From positions 1,032 to 65,031 of the forward strand of contig JBDHGL010000013.1 of NCBI GenBank assembly GCA_039589875.1: DNA of 64,000 bases. The letters run 5' to 3'. Origin of the DNA: Gemmatimonadota bacterium. Its GTDB lineage: Bacteria > Gemmatimonadota > Gemmatimonadetes > Palauibacterales > Palauibacteraceae. The notes below the pieces were generated by a model. The model made no database searches. It saw only the letters and a program-made list of their open reading frames with translations, and was not told where the DNA came from. Below, piece by piece: positions 3,541 through 50,228 of the stretch; within the stretch, counting starts at the first letter, position 1, and each line of letters opens with the position of its first letter. Position numbers and translations under genes: made by a program.

Positions 3541-5870
3541 TCACCGCGCGCCAGACACCGGCGTAACCCGCACCGCACAGAACTTGAATTCGGGGATTTT
3601 TCCGGCGGGATCGAGCTCGTCGATCGTCAACAGGTTTGCGGCGGCCTCCCGAAAGTGGAACGGGATGAATGCCGATCCGCGTAACATCCGGTCGGACCCG
3701 GTCACGGGGAGCGTGATGCAGCCGCGCCGGGACGCCACTTCCACGAGATCGCCGTCCCGCAAACCAAGCTCCGCGAGATCGCTCGGATGGAGGTCCACGC
3801 GTGGGGCCGGCTCGAGTGCGTGAAGGGCTGCCGAGCGTCGCGTCATGGTCCCGGTATGCCAGTGCTCCAGCAGCCGTCCCGTGTTGAGCACGTACGGGTA
3901 GTCCTGATCCGGTAGCTCCTTCGCGGGCGCGAACTCGGCGGGCACGAACTTTCCCCGGCCACTCGCGGTCGGGAAGCCATCTCCGAACAAGATCTGGATA
4001 CCGTCCCCCGCATCGGGATCCGGACACGGCCAGAGCTTGCCCGTCGACCCGAGGTTCTCGTACGTCAGCCCAGCGTACGACGGAGCGAGAGAGCTGAACT
4101 CGTCGAAGATCTGGTCCGTCGAATCGTACTCCATGCGATAACCCATTCGCGTGGCCAGCTCGCAGATGATCTCCCAATCGGCTCGCGCCTCTCCGGGTGG
4201 CTCGAGCGCCTTCCGGCCTACCTGGACGCGTCGGTCGGTATTCGTGTACGTGCCGAACTTCTCGAAGAAGCTGGTCGCGGGGAAAATGACATCCGCGAAC
4301 TCGGCGGTCTCGGTCAGGAAGATGTCCTGGACGACGAGGAACTCGAGGTTGGCGAGGGCCTTCCGGACCTTGTTGATGTTCGGATCGGAGAGGAAGGGGT
4401 TCTCGCCCATCATGTACATGCCGCGTATCGATCCCGCGAGCGCACCCCCCATGATCTCGACGACGGTCAATCCCGGCTCCGGATCCAGCTGCACCCCCCA
4501 CGCCTCCTCGAACGTGGCCCGGATCGCCGGGTCCGCGACGCTCTGATAGTCCGGATAGACCATCGGGATCAGTCCGGCGTCCGAAGCTCCCTGGACGTTG
4601 TTCTGCCCCCTCAGCGGGTGGAGCCCGGTGCCCTCGCGGCCGATGTTGCCGGTGAGAAGAGCGAGCGAGATAAGGCAGCGCGAGTTATCCGTGCCGTGCG
4701 TGTGCTGCGAGATCCCCATTCCCCAGAAGATGATGGCCTTTTCGGCGCTTCCGAACGCTCGCGCCGCTTCCCGGATCAGGTCCGGCTCCACACCGCAGAT
4801 CTTCGACGACACCTCCGGGGAGTAGCGCTCGACGACGGCCTTCAGATCTTCGAAGCCCTCGGTCATGCCGGCGATGTACTCCTCATCGATCAGACTCTCC
4901 TCGACGAGGACGTGCATCCATGCGTTGTACAGGGCCACGTCGGTGCCCGGCTCGATTTGCAGGAAATAGTCGGCGTGCTCGGCCATTTCGATCCGGCGGG
5001 GCTCGACGACGATCAGCTTCGTGCCGCCGAGCTTGCGGGCCTGCTTCATGAAGGTCGCCGCCACCGGGTGGTTGCCGGTCGTGTTCGAGCCGGCGATCAG
5101 AGCGACGTCTGCGTTCTTCACGTCCGCGAAGACGTTCGTGACCGCCCCCGAGCCGATCGTCTCCATCAGCGCTGCCACCGAAGAGGCGTGGCAGAGCCGC
5201 GTGCAGTGGTCCACGTTGTTGGTCCCGAAGCCGGCCCGGACCAGCTTCTGAAACAGGTACGCCTCCTCGTTGCTACACTTCGCACTCCCGAACCCGGCCA
5301 ACGCCGATGGGCCGTGCCGGTCCCGGATCTCCGCCAGCCGTCCGGCCGCCAGGTCCAGTGCCTCGTCCCAGGTGGCCTCGCGGAAGTGAGGCATCACCTC
5401 ATCGTAGTCGACGATTCCGCCGGGCCTTCGCTTGCGCTCCCCTCGGACGTCCGCCGAAAGGGCACCCTTCGGGTATGCCGACTCCTTGCGAATGAGAGGC
5501 GTCGTGAGCCGCTGCGGATGAGTCGCGTAGTCGAATCCGAAGCGCCCCTTCACACACAGGCGCTCGTCGTTGACCGGGCTGGCACGTCCATCGGCTCGCC
5601 GGATCCGCCCGGCGTCCTCATCCACGAAATACCGGATTGCGCAGCCGACGCCGCAGTATGGGCAAACCGAGTCGACCATCTGCAGCTCCGGTCGCTCTCC
5701 CCCACCGTCCAGCCCCGCCAGGAGCTCCTCTCGATGCGCGTCGATCGCCTCGCGAAGCTCGGGCGTCAGAGCCCCGTGAAGATCGCTCAGGAGCAGACGC
5801 TCACCCTGGCGGCGGACCTTCACTCCACGCTTGCCGAGCTCCCTGAGTAGCGTCGCAGATGTCATAGGTA
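3541..5870 (-). CDS. fdhA: Formate dehydrogenase catalytic subunit (Mo/W-bis-PGD oxidoreductase, FdhA/FdsA-like, Cys-type)
   Basis: Starts MTSATLL… The N-terminal 4Fe-4S motif CPYCGVGC…C precedes the molybdopterin oxidoreductase and molybdopterin dinucleotide-binding domains. The position of the FdhF selenocysteine is Cys here (RLCHASSVAAL). The ATG overlaps the upstream stop (CTATGACA). Confidence 0.9.
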
Positions 5871-6548
5871 CTCCCAGTTTCCCGGGTCCTCGGTCTCCGG
5901 TGCCGGCTCCGCACCAAAGCTCAGGGAGAGCGCTCCTGTCGGACAAACCTTCTCGCACTCTCCGCACGAAACGCAGGTGCTCGCGCCCATCGGGGCATCC
6001 AGATCGAACGCGATCCTCGTCCCGTATCCCTTTCCGGTCCGGCCCATGACCTCGTTCACCTGAAGATCATCGCAGCCGCGGATGCACCGGTCGCACAGGA
6101 TGCACGCCTGGTGATCCACGTAGATCACCTTCGACGACGGATCCGTGCCGCGTCCATCTCCGGCGGGCAACCCGCTGATCCGCTCCCGAGGCCACGGCAC
6201 ATCCAACTCGCTCGCCAGCGCGAGCAGATCATCCGAGCCCGTCTTCGGACGTCCACCGGCGCTCACCGGATAGTCCGACAGGAGGAGCTCGACGAGCCCC
6301 TGCCGACAGGCCTCGAGGCGCTCGGATGATGTGCGGACCTCCATTCCTTCCTCCGCCCGGCGTACGCAGGAGGCCGCGTACTTCTTATCGCCGACGTCCA
6401 CCAGGCACAGCCGGCAGACGCCCACCGGCTCGAGCCTCGGATCGTGGCACAGGACCGGGATGTCGACCCCCATGTCTCGGGCGGCCTCCCAGACGGTCGT
6501 GCCGGCTGGCACCCGAACCGACCGCCCGTCGATCGTCAGCTCGATCAT
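5862..6548 (-). CDS. NuoG-like N-terminal Fe-S subunit (2Fe-2S plus 4Fe-4S ferredoxin module) of NAD-dependent formate dehydrogenase
   Basis: 228 aa. Plant-type 2Fe-2S cysteines (CHDPRLEPVGVCRLC). Two 4Fe-4S motifs (CILCDRCIRGC, CVSCGECEKVCP). This corresponds to the N-terminal module of single-chain FdsA/NuoG proteins. Confidence 0.85.
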   Translation of the reverse strand: MIELTIDGRSVRVPAGTTVWEAARDMGVDIPVLCHDPRLEPVGVCRLCLVDVGDKKYAASCVRRAEEGMEVRTSSERLEACRQGLVELLLSDYPVSAGGRPKTGSDDLLALASELDVPWPRERISGLPAGDGRGTDPSSKVIYVDHQACILCDRCIRGCDDLQVNEVMGRTGKGYGTRIAFDLDAPMGASTCVSCGECEKVCPTGALSLSFGAEPAPETEDPGNWEYL

Positions 6549-6552
6549 CCCG

Positions 6553-8163
6553 CTACGCCGTGCATCCGGGGACCTCCTCCGGCCAATGCTCGGCCACGGA
6601 AAGGAGCGGATTCAGCGCGACATAGCCGAGTCCGCAGATCGACGTCTCGCTCAAGAGCAGGTTCAGCTTCTCTATCACTGCCCAGTCCAGTGGACCGTCG
6701 GTCTCCAGAGTCGTCTCGAGCATTCGGGTGGCCTTCTCGGTCCCGACCCGGCAAGGGACACACTTTCCGCATGACTCGTTTCGAAAGAAGCGAACGACGT
6801 TGGCGGCAAGCGGGAGAAGCTGCGTCCCATCCGCTACGACCACCAGCGCCCCGGAGCCCATCATGCTGCCGGCCTCCTCGAGAGTACCGAAGTCGATCGC
6901 CACACCCGCTCGATCGGCCGGAAGGAAGTTGGATGAGGCGCCGCCCGGTGCGAACGCCTTCAAGGCTCGGCCTCCCGCCACCCCCCCGGCCATCTCGATC
7001 AACTCGCTCACGCTCGTGCCGGTTTCGATCTCGTAGACTCCTGGGGCCTCTACGTGGCCCGAGACAGAGATGAACTTGAGACCGGCATGTCCGCCTCTTC
7101 CGGCCGACTGCCACCATTCCACGCCGTTTTCGAGGATTCCCGGGACGAGCGCAAGCGTCTCGACGTTGTTCATGAGCGTCGGGAGCCCGCGGAAGCCCAC
7201 CTGGCCCGGGAATGGAGGCTTGTTACGTGGCTCTCCGCGTCGGTCCTCGAGGGCTTCAAGGAGGGCTGTCTCCTCCCCGAGTATGTAGCCGCCGGGGGAC
7301 ACGAAAACCTCCACGTCGAAGGCGAAGCCGGTGCCGAGAATGTCGTCGCCCAGAAGACCGGAGGATCGAGCTCGCTCCACCTCCCCTTCGAGCGCCTCCC
7401 GGGCGCGGCCGTATTCGTGCCGTAGGTAGATGATCCCCTTCTCGGCGCCGACGACGAATGCTCCCAGGGCCATCCCTTCCACGACGAGATGCGGCAGATC
7501 CTCCATGATCACGCGATCCTTGAAGGTCCCCGGCTCGCTCTCGTCCGCGTTGCAGATGACGTACTTCGGGTGATTCTCTTCGGCCCGAACCAGCTTCCAT
7601 TTCAGTCCGGTCGGGAAGCCGGCGCCTCCCATGCCGCGCAGTCCGGCGCTCTCCAGCCGACCGACGATCCGCTCGGCTTCGCCTGCCGCCGACTCTGCCG
7701 TGAGAGCAGCTCGCAGTGCACCGTAGGGCTCGCCATCCGGGTACGGATCGCACCTCCAGCGCGCGCTCGGCGACGGGATCTCGGCAGCTCCATCCCGCAG
7801 GCATTCCTCCACCCGCTCCGGAGAGTCCACTCGAACCGGACTGCCGTTGACGTGCGCCGCCGGAGCCAGCTCGCAGCAGCCGAGACAGGAAGCGCTCTCC
7901 ACCGTCACGTCCTCTCGGCCACCGATCAGATCGCGTACCCTGTCGGCCAGACCATCCGCTCCCGCCAGGTGGCAGCTCATGTCACGGCACAACGAGATCG
8001 TGACCGGCGGAGCGGCCTCAGTCCTGAAGTGCGGGTAGAACGAGACGAGACCTTCGAGACGATAGAGCGGAACCTTGAGCCGTGCCGACAGCTCGCTGAG
8101 AGTGGGCTCGTCCAGGTATCCTTTGGCGGCTTGCAGCCGGTCCAGCTCGCGGAGTAGTCGCAT
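6553..8163 (-). CDS. NuoE-NuoF fusion: NAD(H)-binding FMN/Fe-S flavoprotein (FdsG-FdsB / HoxF-like diaphorase subunit)
   Basis: N-terminal thioredoxin-like 2Fe-2S domain (CRDMSCH…CLGCC). NuoF core with a Gly-rich FMN/NAD motif (GLRGMGGAGFPTGLKW). C-terminal 4Fe-4S motif (ESCGKCVPCR). Confidence 0.9.
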   Translation of the reverse strand: MRLLRELDRLQAAKGYLDEPTLSELSARLKVPLYRLEGLVSFYPHFRTEAAPPVTISLCRDMSCHLAGADGLADRVRDLIGGREDVTVESASCLGCCELAPAAHVNGSPVRVDSPERVEECLRDGAAEIPSPSARWRCDPYPDGEPYGALRAALTAESAAGEAERIVGRLESAGLRGMGGAGFPTGLKWKLVRAEENHPKYVICNADESEPGTFKDRVIMEDLPHLVVEGMALGAFVVGAEKGIIYLRHEYGRAREALEGEVERARSSGLLGDDILGTGFAFDVEVFVSPGGYILGEETALLEALEDRRGEPRNKPPFPGQVGFRGLPTLMNNVETLALVPGILENGVEWWQSAGRGGHAGLKFISVSGHVEAPGVYEIETGTSVSELIEMAGGVAGGRALKAFAPGGASSNFLPADRAGVAIDFGTLEEAGSMMGSGALVVVADGTQLLPLAANVVRFFRNESCGKCVPCRVGTEKATRMLETTLETDGPLDWAVIEKLNLLLSETSICGLGYVALNPLLSVAEHWPEEVPGCTA

Positions 8164-22818: not shown

Positions 22819-23639
22819 CTAGGGGACGACGGCGACGGCCCGCAGAGGGCCGCCGGTCCCGCCGCGAATCTTCATCGGTAACGCGATCACGATAAAGCCG
22901 GTCTCGGGAAGCTCGTCTAGGTTGGCGAGGTTCTCGAGACCTGGCACATCGGCCGCGGCCGCGATGCGGTGCACCGCGAAATCTCGCGAAGCCCCATAGT
23001 CGATCGAAGCCGCGTCGACGCCCAGGGCAGCCACCTGTCGGCCCTCCACCAGCAATCGAGCCGCCTCCTCGCCAAAGCTCGGAAAGTGGAGGGCGCTCGC
23101 ATCACCGGGCGTGTCGTCCCCCAGGTAGGCTTTCCTGTCCGGCCACCTCCGGCCCCATCCCGTGCGGAGCAGAACGATGGTTCGCGGCGGGATCCGTCCG
23201 TGCGCCTGCTCGAAGCGAAGCACGTCATCCGGCGTCAGGCGATAGTCCTGGTTCTGCGCGGCACTCTCCGAAACATCGATGATCACCCCGGGTGCGATCA
23301 GCTTGGCGAGCGGGATCTGATCGGTGGTCTGCCGGCCCTCGCCGAAATGGATCGGTGCGTCCAGGTGGGTCCCGCCGTGCTCCGGAGTAGCCAGGCTGGC
23401 CGAGGCGTAGAAGTATCCTCCCTCGGTCGCGCCCCAGGCGAGCGTGTCCAGCCGGAAGCCTGACGGAGAGGTCGGCCAGTATACGGTGGTGTCATCGAAT
23501 GCGAAGGTGAGGTCGACGAGCCGGGACGAGCTCAGATCTACCGTCTGGCCGAAGAGCCAGGCCGGCGTGAGACATACGGCGAGCACGGCGGGGCGGGCCG
23601 TCCTGACGGCTGAGCGAAAGGCGGTACGGACACGTTGCA
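22819..23639 (-). CDS. Cyclase family protein (kynurenine formamidase-like, PF04199)
   Basis: Start ATG at 23637..23639 (MQRVRTAF…). Conserved HGGTHLDAPIHF metal-binding motif. The track ORF extends further upstream, but that extension overlaps the EamA gene and is low-complexity. Confidence 0.8.
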
Positions 23640-23756
23640 TGAGAATTCCTCCGACGTCTGGCTTTGGCGGTCGTGGGGTGGATCTTACCGCAGGGCCTTG
23701 AGAGGCACGAGCGTGATCAGGAGGCGGGCCGGACGTGAACATCGATCTGGAGCTGG

Positions 23757-24642
23757 AGTGACTCGGGAGGTTCGCGGTACGCTGGCCGTCTTCGGGGCGG
23801 CAATCGGCTACAGCTTTCTGCCCATTCTGGCCAAGCTGGCCCTCGCCGAAGGCGTCCTGCTCCTGCCGATGGTCGCCTGGCGATTCGTAACCGCGAGCGC
23901 CGCGATATGGCTCCTCATGGGGGCGACACGCAGACCGGCCCCGAGTCGACCGACGTGGCCCGGCCTCGTCGGTCTGGGGCTGCTGTACGCCGTCAACGCT
24001 ACAGCCTATCTGGCCGCTCTGCAGTGGCTCTCGGCGTCCTTCGCCTCGCTCGTGTTCTTTACCTATCCCGTTGTAGTCATCGCTCTCGCGGCCCTGTTTC
24101 TCGGCGAGCGGCTTACCCGGCCACGCATGCTGGCCACACTTCTGGCCGTCTCGGGATCCGCACTGATCATCGGTTTTCGGGGCCATCAGGCTGCGCCGGC
24201 CGGACTGCTGCTCATCGCCGTCGCCGTCGCCTTCGTGTCGGTCTACATCCTCTTCGGACAACGGGTGATGAGGGACGCGCCGGCACACGGAGCGGCTGCG
24301 GTCAGCCTGCTCGCCACCGCAACGGTAATGGTCATGACCGCGTGGGCAGCGGGCGGATTGGCGCTGGGTGGTGGGGCGCGCGGAGCCCTGCTCGTGGCGC
24401 TCATGGGCGTGGTGTCTACGGCTCTCCCGGTTACTCTTCTCCTCATCGGGATCCGCGACATCGGGCCCGGGACGGCATCCGTCTACGCCACGGTCGAACC
24501 GCTTCTCACGGTTCTGTTGGCCGCCTCCCTGCTGAGCGAGCGAATCGCGCCGCTCCAGTACGCGGGAGGCGCCGTACTCCTTTCGGGCGTGCTTTGGCTC
24601 CGGCTGCAGCGGCCGCGACAGGCGCCGGCCCTGGCCGAATAG
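23757..24642 (+). CDS. EamA/DMT family transporter
   Basis: About ten TM helices in two EamA-like repeats. GTG start near 23757 (VTREVRGTLAVFGAAIGYSFLPILAKLA…). Confidence 0.8.
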
Positions 24643-24654
24643 CGGAATCGATCT

Positions 24655-25182
24655 CTAGGCCGGTCCCTCCCGGACGTCGGCCATCCACGAGACGTCCACC
24701 GCACCCCGCAGGGTAGCGGCGGTCGGGCACTTGGACTGATGAAGCTCCAGCGCCCAGTCGACGATCTCCCGTGTTCCCTCGGGAATATGAAGCGAGTACT
24801 CGATCTCGATCCGGGTGAGTACGGGCAGCCGGTCGACGATCTCGTTGAAGCCCGTAACCTTGGCCGTGATCGCCTCTGATGGCAGCACCACCTCGCGCGC
24901 CTCCAGCGCGCCGTTCAGGGTTCCCAGCATTCACCCGCCGGTGAGCGCCACCATGTAGTCGACCGGGAGAGGCTGATCCTGCGCTTTCAGCCTGTAGTGC
25001 TCCTTGATCGGGCCGTGCACACCCATATCGAACTCCGCCCCCGTCTCGAGCCGGGCCCGACGGTGCACGCCCTCTACCTTCCAGACGTCGGCTGTCGAAA
25101 TGTAGAACGGCTCGGCCACCTGTCTCCTCCTGTTTCGGGCTCCCCGACAGACCGCGTCGGCCGCGCTGGTCCGTCCAGACAT
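24655..25182 (-). pseudogene. OsmC/Ohr family peroxiredoxin-like gene with one in-frame TGA at the peroxidatic Cys position (candidate selenoprotein or nonsense pseudogene)
   Basis: Two contiguous same-frame ORFs (24931..25182 and 24655..24930) are separated only by TGA: …PVDYMVALTGG-TGA-MLGTLNGALEAREV…. This aligns with OsmC …PEELLLAALAGC…. The second conserved Cys motif is present downstream (KCPTAATLRG). Confidence 0.7.
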
Positions 25183-25269
25183 CTTGCTGGTCGCTCGTAC
25201 CGGCGTCTAGCTTCGGCACGGCGGTCACCCGCCATATCGGTCACTCCAGTGCTACTTCGAGGTTTAAAA

Positions 25270-27075
25270 ATGCTCAATGCGCTCAAGGTTTTGACGATCG
25301 TCGCGGTCATCGCCGCGGCCGGGTGTGCGGGCGGAGACGGCTCTGATGGCGATGCGGCTCCGGACGGTGGAACGCCAAGCGCTCAAGCGCTCGGGGATCT
25401 TGCAGGACGATACTGGGCGTGGAGCCTCGAAGAGTACCCCACGATGGCCACGCGGCTGGGGGACCGTCGCTACGACGACCGGCTCACCGACATCTCGGCG
25501 GCCGCACGAGACAGGCGCCACGCGACTACTGAAGCCTTCCTCGCGGAGCTCCGGGAGATCGGCAACGAGGATCTGAGCGGCCAGGATCTCATCTCCTACC
25601 TCGCTCTGGAGGAGGAGCTGCAGGAGGATCTCGATCGCCGCATCTGCCGCTCGCCGGAGTGGCGGATCGACCATCGGAACGGACCGCAGGTCGGCCTCCA
25701 GAACATCGCCGACGTCCAGCGGGTCGAGACCCCCGCCGATGGCCGGAAAATGGTCGCGAGATGGCAGGCCATGGGCCCGTACATCGACGACTACATCGCC
25801 AACCTGCGGAGCGGGCTGGCGGACGGGCTCGTCCAGAACCGGGTGACCGTGGAGCACGCGATCGAGCAGCTGGAGATGCAGCTCGCTCAGCCCGACGACG
25901 AGTGGCCTCTGGCCGAGCCGGCCGAGATCCGCCGAGAGGGCTGGTCGGAGGAAGCGCACGAGGAATTCAGGGCTGGCCTCCTCTCCGCGATCGGCGAGGG
26001 CGTGCGGCCCTCGTTCGTGCGGCTCAAGGCCCTTCTCGAGGACGAGATCCTCCCGGCGGCCCGGACGGGCGATCAGGTCGGCCTCGTCGGCCTGCCGGCC
26101 GGTGATGAGTGCTACACGGTGCTTCGGCGCTCCTACACGACCCTGGATCTGAGCGCCGAGGAGATCCACGAGATCGGCCTTCAGGAGAACGCTCGTATCC
26201 GGGCGGAGATGGCCGTTCTGGGCGAGAGCGTGTTCGGCACCTCAGACGTCGGCGAGATTCAGACTAGGCTACGGACCGATCCAGAGCTGCACTTCTCGGA
26301 TGAAGAGGAGGTCAAGGCCAAGGCGGAGCAGGCAACGAAACTGGCGCTCGAGACGATCCCTTCCTGGTTCGGGCGGCTCCCCGAGGCGCCGATCGTGGTG
26401 AAGGAGATCCCGTCGTACGAGGCCCCGTTCACGACCATCGCCTACTACCGGCAGCCGGCGACCGACGGCTCCCGGCCCGGCACGTACTTCATCAACACCT
26501 ACGCGCCGACCACCCGGCCGAAGTACGACGCCGAGGTGCTAGCCTACCACGAGGGCATCCCCGGCCATCACCTGCAGATCGCCATCGCGCAGGAGCTGAC
26601 CGGTGTCCCCGAGTTCCGGAAGCATCAAGGAGCGACCGCGTTCGTCGAGGGATGGGCGCTCTACACCGAACGCCTTTCCGACGAGATGGGACTCTACACG
26701 GGAGACCTGGACCGGCTCGGCGTGCTCTCTTTCGATGCCTGGCGGGCGAGCCGCTTGGTGGTGGACACCGGCGTCCACGCGTTCGGCTGGACGCGCCAAC
26801 AGGCGATCGACTACATGCTCGAGAACACGCTGCTCGCCGAGAACAACGTGGTGAACGAGGTCGACCGATATGTCTCGTGGCCGGGTCAGGCCCTGGCCTA
26901 CAAGCTCGGTCAAAGGGAGATCCTCCGGCTGCGTGATCAGGCGAAGGAGGTGCTCGGCCCCAGCTTCGATATCCGAGCCTTCCACGACCGGGTGCTCGAA
27001 AACGGAGCTGTCAGCCTGGCCGTGCTCGGGACGGTGATCGAGGAGTGGCTGGCCGAGGAGGCTGCCAGCGAGTAG
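25270..27075 (+). CDS. DUF885 family lipoprotein (putative metallopeptidase-like)
   Basis: Lipoprotein signal MLNALKVLTIVAVIAAAGC. DUF885 signature including HEGIPGHH. Confidence 0.85.
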   Translation: MLNALKVLTIVAVIAAAGCAGGDGSDGDAAPDGGTPSAQALGDLAGRYWAWSLEEYPTMATRLGDRRYDDRLTDISAAARDRRHATTEAFLAELREIGNEDLSGQDLISYLALEEELQEDLDRRICRSPEWRIDHRNGPQVGLQNIADVQRVETPADGRKMVARWQAMGPYIDDYIANLRSGLADGLVQNRVTVEHAIEQLEMQLAQPDDEWPLAEPAEIRREGWSEEAHEEFRAGLLSAIGEGVRPSFVRLKALLEDEILPAARTGDQVGLVGLPAGDECYTVLRRSYTTLDLSAEEIHEIGLQENARIRAEMAVLGESVFGTSDVGEIQTRLRTDPELHFSDEEEVKAKAEQATKLALETIPSWFGRLPEAPIVVKEIPSYEAPFTTIAYYRQPATDGSRPGTYFINTYAPTTRPKYDAEVLAYHEGIPGHHLQIAIAQELTGVPEFRKHQGATAFVEGWALYTERLSDEMGLYTGDLDRLGVLSFDAWRASRLVVDTGVHAFGWTRQQAIDYMLENTLLAENNVVNEVDRYVSWPGQALAYKLGQREILRLRDQAKEVLGPSFDIRAFHDRVLENGAVSLAVLGTVIEEWLAEEAASE

Positions 27076-49733: not shown

Positions 49734-49760
49734 CTCGCCGCCCGCAAAAGGAGATCTGGC

Positions 49761-50228
49761 ATGGCCGTACGAACAGGAGATATGGCGCCGGCGTTTCAGC
49801 TTCCCCAGGGACCCGGCGACGTTGTTGATCTCGGGGAGCACATCGGAAGTGAGAAGGTCGTACTCCTCTTCTTTCCGCTCGCGTTCAGCTCGGTGTGCAC
49901 GGCAGAGCTGTGCACGATCTCACAGGACTGGGGAGCCTGGGACGACCTGGGTGCCCGCGTCTTCGGAATCAGCGTGGACAGTCCTTTCGTCACGCAGCGC
50001 TTCCGGGAGGAGGAGGGGATCACGTTTCCCCTCCTCTCCGATTTCAACAAGCACGTGGCCGAGGAGTACGGCGTTCTGTACGAGAACCTCGTCGGGCTCG
50101 AGGGCGTGGCCAAGCGATCCGTGTTCGTGGTCGATGCGAGCGGAAGGGTCGTCTACGATTGGGTGTCGGAGGACTCCGGTGTGGAGCCGGATTACGACGA
50201 GATCAGGAGTGCTCTCGAGGCGGCTTGA
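49761..50228 (+). CDS. Peroxiredoxin (AhpC/TSA, Bcp/PrxQ-like)
   Basis: Peroxidatic Cys motif FSSVCTAELC and PFVTQRF motif. 155 aa. Confidence 0.9.
   Translation: MAVRTGDMAPAFQLPQGPGDVVDLGEHIGSEKVVLLFFPLAFSSVCTAELCTISQDWGAWDDLGARVFGISVDSPFVTQRFREEEGITFPLLSDFNKHVAEEYGVLYENLVGLEGVAKRSVFVVDASGRVVYDWVSEDSGVEPDYDEIRSALEAA

Follow-up and report, generated by a model that had tools for sequence, protein, structure and literature searches.

Proteins of the OsmC/Ohr type reduce peroxides via an intramolecular bond between a first and a second redox residue; the first redox cysteine is the peroxidatic one and the second is the resolving one. Selenium-containing members of this superfamily are known from marine sequences.

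An OsmC-like selenoprotein was described in 2005 from the Sargasso Sea by Zhang, Fomenko and Gladyshev (PMC1088965), and later catalogues list the OsmC-like selenoprotein with the motif UxxT. Three sequences were counted in the Sargasso set and five in the GOS set. Bacterial SECIS elements (bSECIS) have been delimited by an apical loop of 3-9 nt with a G in its first two positions, an upper stem of 4-16 bp, a distance of 16-37 nt from the UGA to the loop and a minimum free energy at or below -7.5 kcal/mol (PMC13188914).

Here we analyse a 64,000-nucleotide stretch of contig JBDHGL010000013.1 (assembly GCA_039589875.1) of a Gemmatimonadota bacterium, hereafter the window, in which an OsmC-like gene is interrupted by a single TGA. 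We propose, with a probability of about 0.88, that the UGA at 24933-24931 is read as selenocysteine (Sec) in a 154-residue thiol peroxidase of the OsmC superfamily, in which Sec replaces the peroxidatic cysteine.

The gene and its reading frame

Translation of the minus strand between 25182 and 24655 gives one frame whose sole internal stop is the TGA at 24933-24931. The features of the locus are as follows.

24655..25119, minus strand: coding sequence of the proposed OsmC-like selenoprotein, 154 codons including Sec63, from GTG (25119-25117) to TAG (24657-24655)
25126..25131, minus strand: Shine-Dalgarno-like AGGAGG, read from the sequence, with a 6-nt spacer before the GTG start
24931..24933, minus strand: in-frame UGA, proposed Sec63, in the column that holds the first (peroxidatic) Cys in the OsmC family, placed by conservation and alignments
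24895..24911, minus strand: candidate bacterial SECIS hairpin GCGCGCU-GGA-GGCGCGC, with a 7-bp stem and a 3-nt apical loop
24727..24729, minus strand: TGC codon of Cys131 in the motif KCPTAATL, the predicted resolving cysteine, placed by family alignments and by the alignment with Thermus OsmC

The residues around the predicted Sec63 read VALTGG-U-MLGTLNGALEAR. The earlier note had begun the gene at the in-frame ATG at 25182, which lies 63 nt too far upstream and, judging from the alignments, is probably not the start; the orthologues and the AGGAGG favour the GTG at 25119. Among 82 relatives aligned at this GTG, the start column holds ATG in 49, GTG in 29 and TTG in 4. The G+C content of the window is 65 per cent and the GC3 values of the two halves of the gene are 0.80 and 0.84, a coding-type G+C pattern on either side of the TGA. 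The gene is monocistronic, and a scan of the window found no TGA-interrupted coding region besides it.

Membership in the OsmC superfamily

When the joined 154-residue protein was analysed with Cys substituted for the stop, it matched the Pfam OsmC family (PF02566) with 38.3 bits (cutoff 27.5 bits; E = 1.9e-9) over residues 48-145 of 154, across the UGA. The description in the earlier note of a complete OsmC-like protein in one frame with a single TGA is thus borne out by both the translation and the Pfam match. In the family profile alignment, the column of U63 corresponds to the Cys of 'HAGC' in Thermus thermophilus OsmC (1UKK) and that of Cys131 (KCPTA) to the second catalytic Cys (EGCPVS) of the same protein. 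Together with the Cys homologues, which read GGCMLGTL, these alignments support two further claims made from the sequence at the outset, namely that the UGA occupies the peroxidatic Cys column and that the resolving-Cys motif KCPTAATL is intact downstream. The Cys131 column is invariant in the family alignments.

An AlphaFold model was obtained for the Cys homologue P0006, 57 per cent identical to the window protein and modelled as a stand-in for it (pLDDT 94.2). The modelled structure has the alpha/beta fold of OsmC, with the first redox residue predicted on the long central helix: the two redox residues of the model fall in helix 53-75 and at the helix break at 131/133. The top PDB matches of this model in Foldseek were YhfA (1ML8), OsmC TM0919, Ta0195 and Ohr (TM 0.63-0.85), with a probability of 1.00 for an OsmC/Ohr-type fold and 10-26 per cent identity to the solved structures. 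The window protein stays below the cutoffs of the NCBIfam OsmC/Ohr subfamily models; against these models (e.g. TIGR03562) it had no match at E<=0.001, and the Cys-form homologue P0029 scored 18.9 bits on TIGR03562 (cutoff 85.8 bits).

Conservation of the UGA among relatives

A search of 5.8 billion proteins returned 346 matches to the protein of this gene. Most of the best 120 of these 346 matches are fragments of 89-93 residues starting at the Met that follows the TGA, which indicates that gene callers halted at the same place in many assemblies. At the DNA level, a scan of species-representative genomes yielded 18 loci, all in Gemmatimonadota metagenome-assembled genomes (MAGs), and the TGA is found at the same column in all 18; tblastn covered residues 1-154 in 15 of them, the other three being shorter at one end or cut by the contig. 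A metagenome scan added 80 loci, all 80 with the TGA. A few further loci bring the total to 104 TGA forms from independent MAGs and metagenomes, containing 84 distinct 63-nt segments around the TGA codon. Across these 104 relatives, whose proteins are 58-88 per cent identical, the column always holds TGA and never TAA or TAG.

The sequence on each side of the UGA varies as translated DNA does. For the 16 codons before the UGA the entropies of codon positions 1, 2 and 3 are 0.36, 0.32 and 1.23, the third position being three to four times as variable as the other two; for codons +13 to +30 after the UGA the values are 0.85, 0.69 and 1.37. This excess at third positions is characteristic of translated sequence and points to purifying selection on both sides of the UGA. 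The loci are orthologous: neighbouring genes are conserved as well, a divergent DUF885 gene in 23 loci and a convergent EamA gene in 17.

Five full-length homologues (P0003, P0006, P0010, P0023 and P0029) carry a Cys codon at the UGA column, TGT in L099 and TGC in L101-L104, within the motif GGCMLGTL. Such Cys forms are rarer than TGA forms (5 versus 104). Two apparent 'Trp' homologues, P0002 and P0004, were rejected, as their DNA has TGA, which the source (JGI) had translated as W. At these loci (L100:463-525 and L105:272-334) the JGI calls produce full-length but wrong proteins, apparently because a code with UGA as Trp had been applied to short contigs.

A conserved hairpin downstream of the UGA

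Counted from the U of the UGA, the candidate SECIS hairpin occupies positions +22 to +38, inside the codons G70-A71-L72-E73-A74-R75, and 19 nt separate the UGA from the first paired base. With a 3-nt GGA loop, a 7-bp stem, 26 nt from the UGA to the loop and -12.8 kcal/mol, it falls within all the limits listed above for bSECIS elements. Folding energy taken alone is not unusual for this G+C-rich DNA: that of the single window sequence was no better than that of its shuffles (z=0.27), and it was therefore not used as evidence, the support for the hairpin being comparative.

RNAalifold applied to the 84 distinct sequences returned exactly this 7-bp hairpin, and 99.7 per cent of the pair cells in the alignment hold standard pairs. 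Two pairs show double-sided changes: pair 32-42 changes from C-G to U-A in 11 sequences, and pair 33-41 is A-U in 47 sequences and G-C in 34. None of 500 shuffles reached the observed pairing or covariation, although this control overstates the independence of related sequences with common ancestry, and slid registers collapse. The switches in the stem come at the cost of Ala to Val changes, to which synonymous codons that are otherwise rare, such as GCA, provide the match. Third positions within the stem are nearly fixed (Leu CTG in 82 of 83, Gly GGC in 81 of 83), whereas they are free to vary in six equally conserved codons 5' of the stem and in the codons 3' of it.

The full 7-pair stem is present in 103 of the 104 TGA forms and in one of the five Cys forms; sampling synonymous codons at the codon usage of the window would give it in 3.5-4.3 per cent of cases. 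The sole exception among the TGA forms (L096:3017-3079, GALAVR) retains five of the seven usual pairs and can form, at the same place, a longer alternative hairpin, GGUGC..CGCCG-UGCG-CGGCG..GCACC. The GC-rich, SECIS-like hairpin that had been read from the single sequence is therefore confirmed by its fit to the bacterial constraints and by compensatory changes, and the structure is conserved in orthologous loci. RNAalifold found no conserved lower stem reaching the UGA, and no Rfam family matched in the window.

The UGA, the frame on both sides of it and the hairpin are thus conserved together, and the Cys forms mostly do without the hairpin, which argues for a selenoprotein.

Proposed decoding and catalysis

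We infer that SelB binds the hairpin. In the proposed mechanism, SelB carrying Sec-tRNA(Sec) would recognize the 7-bp stem with its GGA apical loop closed by U.G and deliver Sec at the UGA, and the ribosome would then read on to make the full-length protein. Catalysis would follow, by analogy, that of OsmC and Ohr: the Sec63 selenolate, located on the long central helix, would reduce a hydroperoxide to the alcohol and itself become a selenenic acid. This would be resolved by Cys131 (KCPTA) to a selenenylsulfide, which a cellular thiol reductant, perhaps thioredoxin or a lipoyl protein, would re-reduce. The function suggested by this analogy would be peroxide detoxification, as a thiol-dependent hydroperoxide reductase.

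Alternative readings of the UGA

Three other explanations of the in-frame TGA were weighed. The one that survives best, while still improbable, is that the UGA is decoded as an ordinary amino acid, either under a code in which it means Trp or Gly or through near-cognate read-through (Trp, Cys or Arg) stimulated by the hairpin in a cell without Sec machinery. The W that JGI places at the TGA in P0002 and P0004 agrees with this, as does the failure to find Sec machinery in the window or in the flanks of related loci (see below). A change of code fails, however, because 22 of the 51 likely genes of the window end at TGA, including genes with Pfam domains complete just before it; UGA is a normal stop here. 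Across about 730 kb only one further conserved in-frame TGA was found, likewise at a Cys position. Trp, Gly or Arg at the catalytic column, where the homologues have Cys, would abolish the chemistry, and near-cognate read-through would likewise put a non-catalytic residue into the active site. It would also leave unexplained the agreement of the hairpin with the SelB-type SECIS model in both loop sequence and spacing.

Rather less probable again is a true split gene, in which the ribosome terminates at the TGA and initiates anew at the neighbouring ATG, and the resulting polypeptides of 62 and 91 residues assemble into an OsmC fold without the first catalytic residue. An ATG does follow the TGA directly (TGAATG) in most sequences, and database annotation shows a pair of ORFs, one of 62-63 and the other of 89-93 residues. 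In L014, L015, L052, L100 and L105, nevertheless, the TGA is followed by CTA or CTG, neither of them a start codon, and the Met is also present in the Cys forms (CMLGT), which makes it a residue of the family and not a start. Such a split would cut the central helix and lose the catalytic residue. The frozen synonymous sites, the compensatory changes and the loss of the hairpin in Cys forms would all go unexplained.

Finally, the fallback offered in the earlier note, a fresh nonsense pseudogene or a sequencing error, is excluded, and so is an assembly error in an ordinary Cys-type OsmC gene: TGA is one base away from TGC or TGT and gene callers give only the 91-residue C-terminal piece, but all 104 independently assembled relatives have the same TGA, selection is purifying on either side of it, the conservation of the hairpin is specific to TGA forms, and the differing sources and sequences rule out a systematic artefact shared across assemblies.

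Selenocysteine machinery and a second candidate gene

Genes for Sec decoding were sought in several ways. ARAGORN found no tRNA at all in the 64-kb window, hence no tRNA-Sec, and Rfam found none either; among about 50 ORFs of the window scanned with Pfam, none had a SelA, SelB or SelD domain. With E. coli queries, which are approximate, tblastn gave no match to selA, selB or selD in the window and 98 related loci, and neither these genes nor tRNA-Sec were found by tblastn and ARAGORN in the flanks of related loci, about 670 kb in all. We found no published mention of a Sec trait in Gemmatimonadota in main texts and survey supplements.

The formate dehydrogenase in the window had been taken in the earlier note as a sign that the Sec machinery may be absent. 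The enzyme is indeed of the Cys type (RLCHASS), but this says nothing about the presence of Sec machinery: many Sec-using organisms also have Cys-type formate dehydrogenases, so that the enzyme in the window is neutral on the question.

A second gene, outside the window, bears on it indirectly. On contigs of relatives that have the OsmC-like gene with UGA, the CxCC motif of a DUF411/CopG-like gene (PF04214) has a conserved TGA in the place of its first Cys:

L033:168-641: DUF411 gene with TGA at 300-302, encoding a signal peptide and the stretch VTVYLTPT-[TGA]-GCCAEW
L107, 9980: DUF411 TGA
L108, 5272: DUF411 TGA
L109, 618: DUF411 TGA
L110, 2889: DUF411 TGA

The loci L111-L114 are identical copies. 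In L107, L109 and L110 the DUF411 gene is found upstream of the split OsmC gene, at a distance of 0.2-3 kb. It too has a hairpin, GUGGGUG-GUU-CACCUGC, which begins 14 nt after the UGA, with its paired bases at +17 to +33 from the U. The closest database homologues (72-95 per cent identity) are truncations of 106-107 residues; more distant homologues, at about 50-60 per cent identity, are full-length with 150-160 residues and presumably carry Cys at the TGA column. No paper that treats DUF411 and selenocysteine together was found.

A second gene with TGA in place of Cys on the same contigs argues, if indirectly, that the lineage decodes Sec. We lean slightly towards the view that Gemmatimonadota possess a small unannotated selenoproteome comprising the OsmC-like clade and a periplasmic DUF411/CopG-like protein, in which the copper-cluster motif CxCC may have Sec in place of its first Cys.

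Neighbourhood and other genes of the window

At positions 23635-27072 of the window the order is DUF885 (divergent), the OsmC-like gene and an EamA transporter gene (convergent), the stop codons of the last two being 12 nt apart. This order recurs in 17-23 related loci (among L001-L026), down to 53 per cent DUF885 identity.

The NAD-type formate dehydrogenase alpha subunit (TIGR01591, 805 bits) belongs to a pair of minus-strand genes at 3541-5865 and 5862-6611, the enzyme and a HoxU/NuoG-like partner. Cys occupies its Mo-ligand position. Unusually for such an enzyme, its N-terminus matches a TubC_N docking domain (E = 4.8e-9). The ATG of the enzyme gene overlaps, as ATGA, the stop of the upstream gene for the HoxU/NuoG-like Fe-S subunit; a frameshift was considered here and rejected in favour of two genes overlapping in this way. 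The window also contains an uninterrupted AhpC/TSA-type thiol peroxidase gene at 49734-50228 on the plus strand, directly after the TAG stop of a DUF2207 gene and in the same frame.

Significance and comparison with known systems

NCBI, JGI, ENA and Logan annotate the gene as an ORF of 62-63 residues followed by one of 89-93 residues named 'OsmC family' or 'hypothetical', or else translate the UGA as Trp. The split annotation leaves hundreds of database entries without their catalytic residue, and a dedicated model would correct those entries. The sequences described here would add a numerous second clade to a family of selenoproteins of which only a handful, all marine, had been known, and suggest that selenium serves in peroxide defence in Gemmatimonadota of sediments and soils. 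The coexistence of Sec and Cys forms, with the hairpin mainly in the Sec forms, also makes the family a clean natural benchmark on which to try SECIS predictors.

Among described elements, the fdhF-type SECIS of E. coli and the bSECIS consensus are likewise coding-region stem-loops after the UGA with a G at the start of the loop. The U-GGA-G of the window hairpin fits the consensus N1-G-[G|U]-N-N2, and its loop, 26 nt from the UGA, lies within the range of 16-37. The hairpin differs in having no sequence resemblance to the fdhF element and in that no conserved lower stem down to the UGA was found for it.

The Cys-type OsmC and Ohr proteins (E. coli OsmC 1QWI, 1UKK, Ohr of Pseudomonas and Chromobacterium, YhfA 1ML8) have the same fold as the P0006 model and two redox residues in the same columns, the window protein being predicted to have selenium in place of sulfur at the first. 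By analogy, its chemistry is likely the same as theirs.

The closest described system is the OsmC-like selenoprotein of the Sargasso and GOS sets, which likewise belongs to the PF02566 superfamily and keeps the second Cys downstream. The Sargasso motif 'GIGF-U-LLTQL' aligns Sec to Sec with 'LTGG-U-MLGTL' of the window, and in both genes a hairpin of the SECIS type lies in the coding region just after the UGA. The profile comparison with the Sargasso-type family is weak, however (27 per cent probability over 43 columns), and the window protein and its relatives have U-M-L-G-T, that is U-x-x-x-T, and not the U-x-x-T of that family. On the NCBIfam model NF041052, 'OsmC-related (seleno)protein' (OsmC_like_Se), whose cutoff is 95 bits, the window protein scores 23.1 bits, P0006 21.5 bits and P0029 19.8 bits, compared with 157.4 bits for the Sargasso reference AACY01145085, taken from the supplement of PMC1088965. 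The hosts differ as well, G+C-rich Gemmatimonadota of sediments and soils on the one hand and low-G+C marine plankton on the other, and the window clade is far more numerous in current data, counting 346 proteins in databases and 209 stretches in metagenomes, compared with three Sargasso and five GOS sequences. By sequence comparison, the Gemmatimonadota proteins are a clade separate from the Sargasso branch, while the mechanism and the kind of selenoprotein proposed for them are already known.
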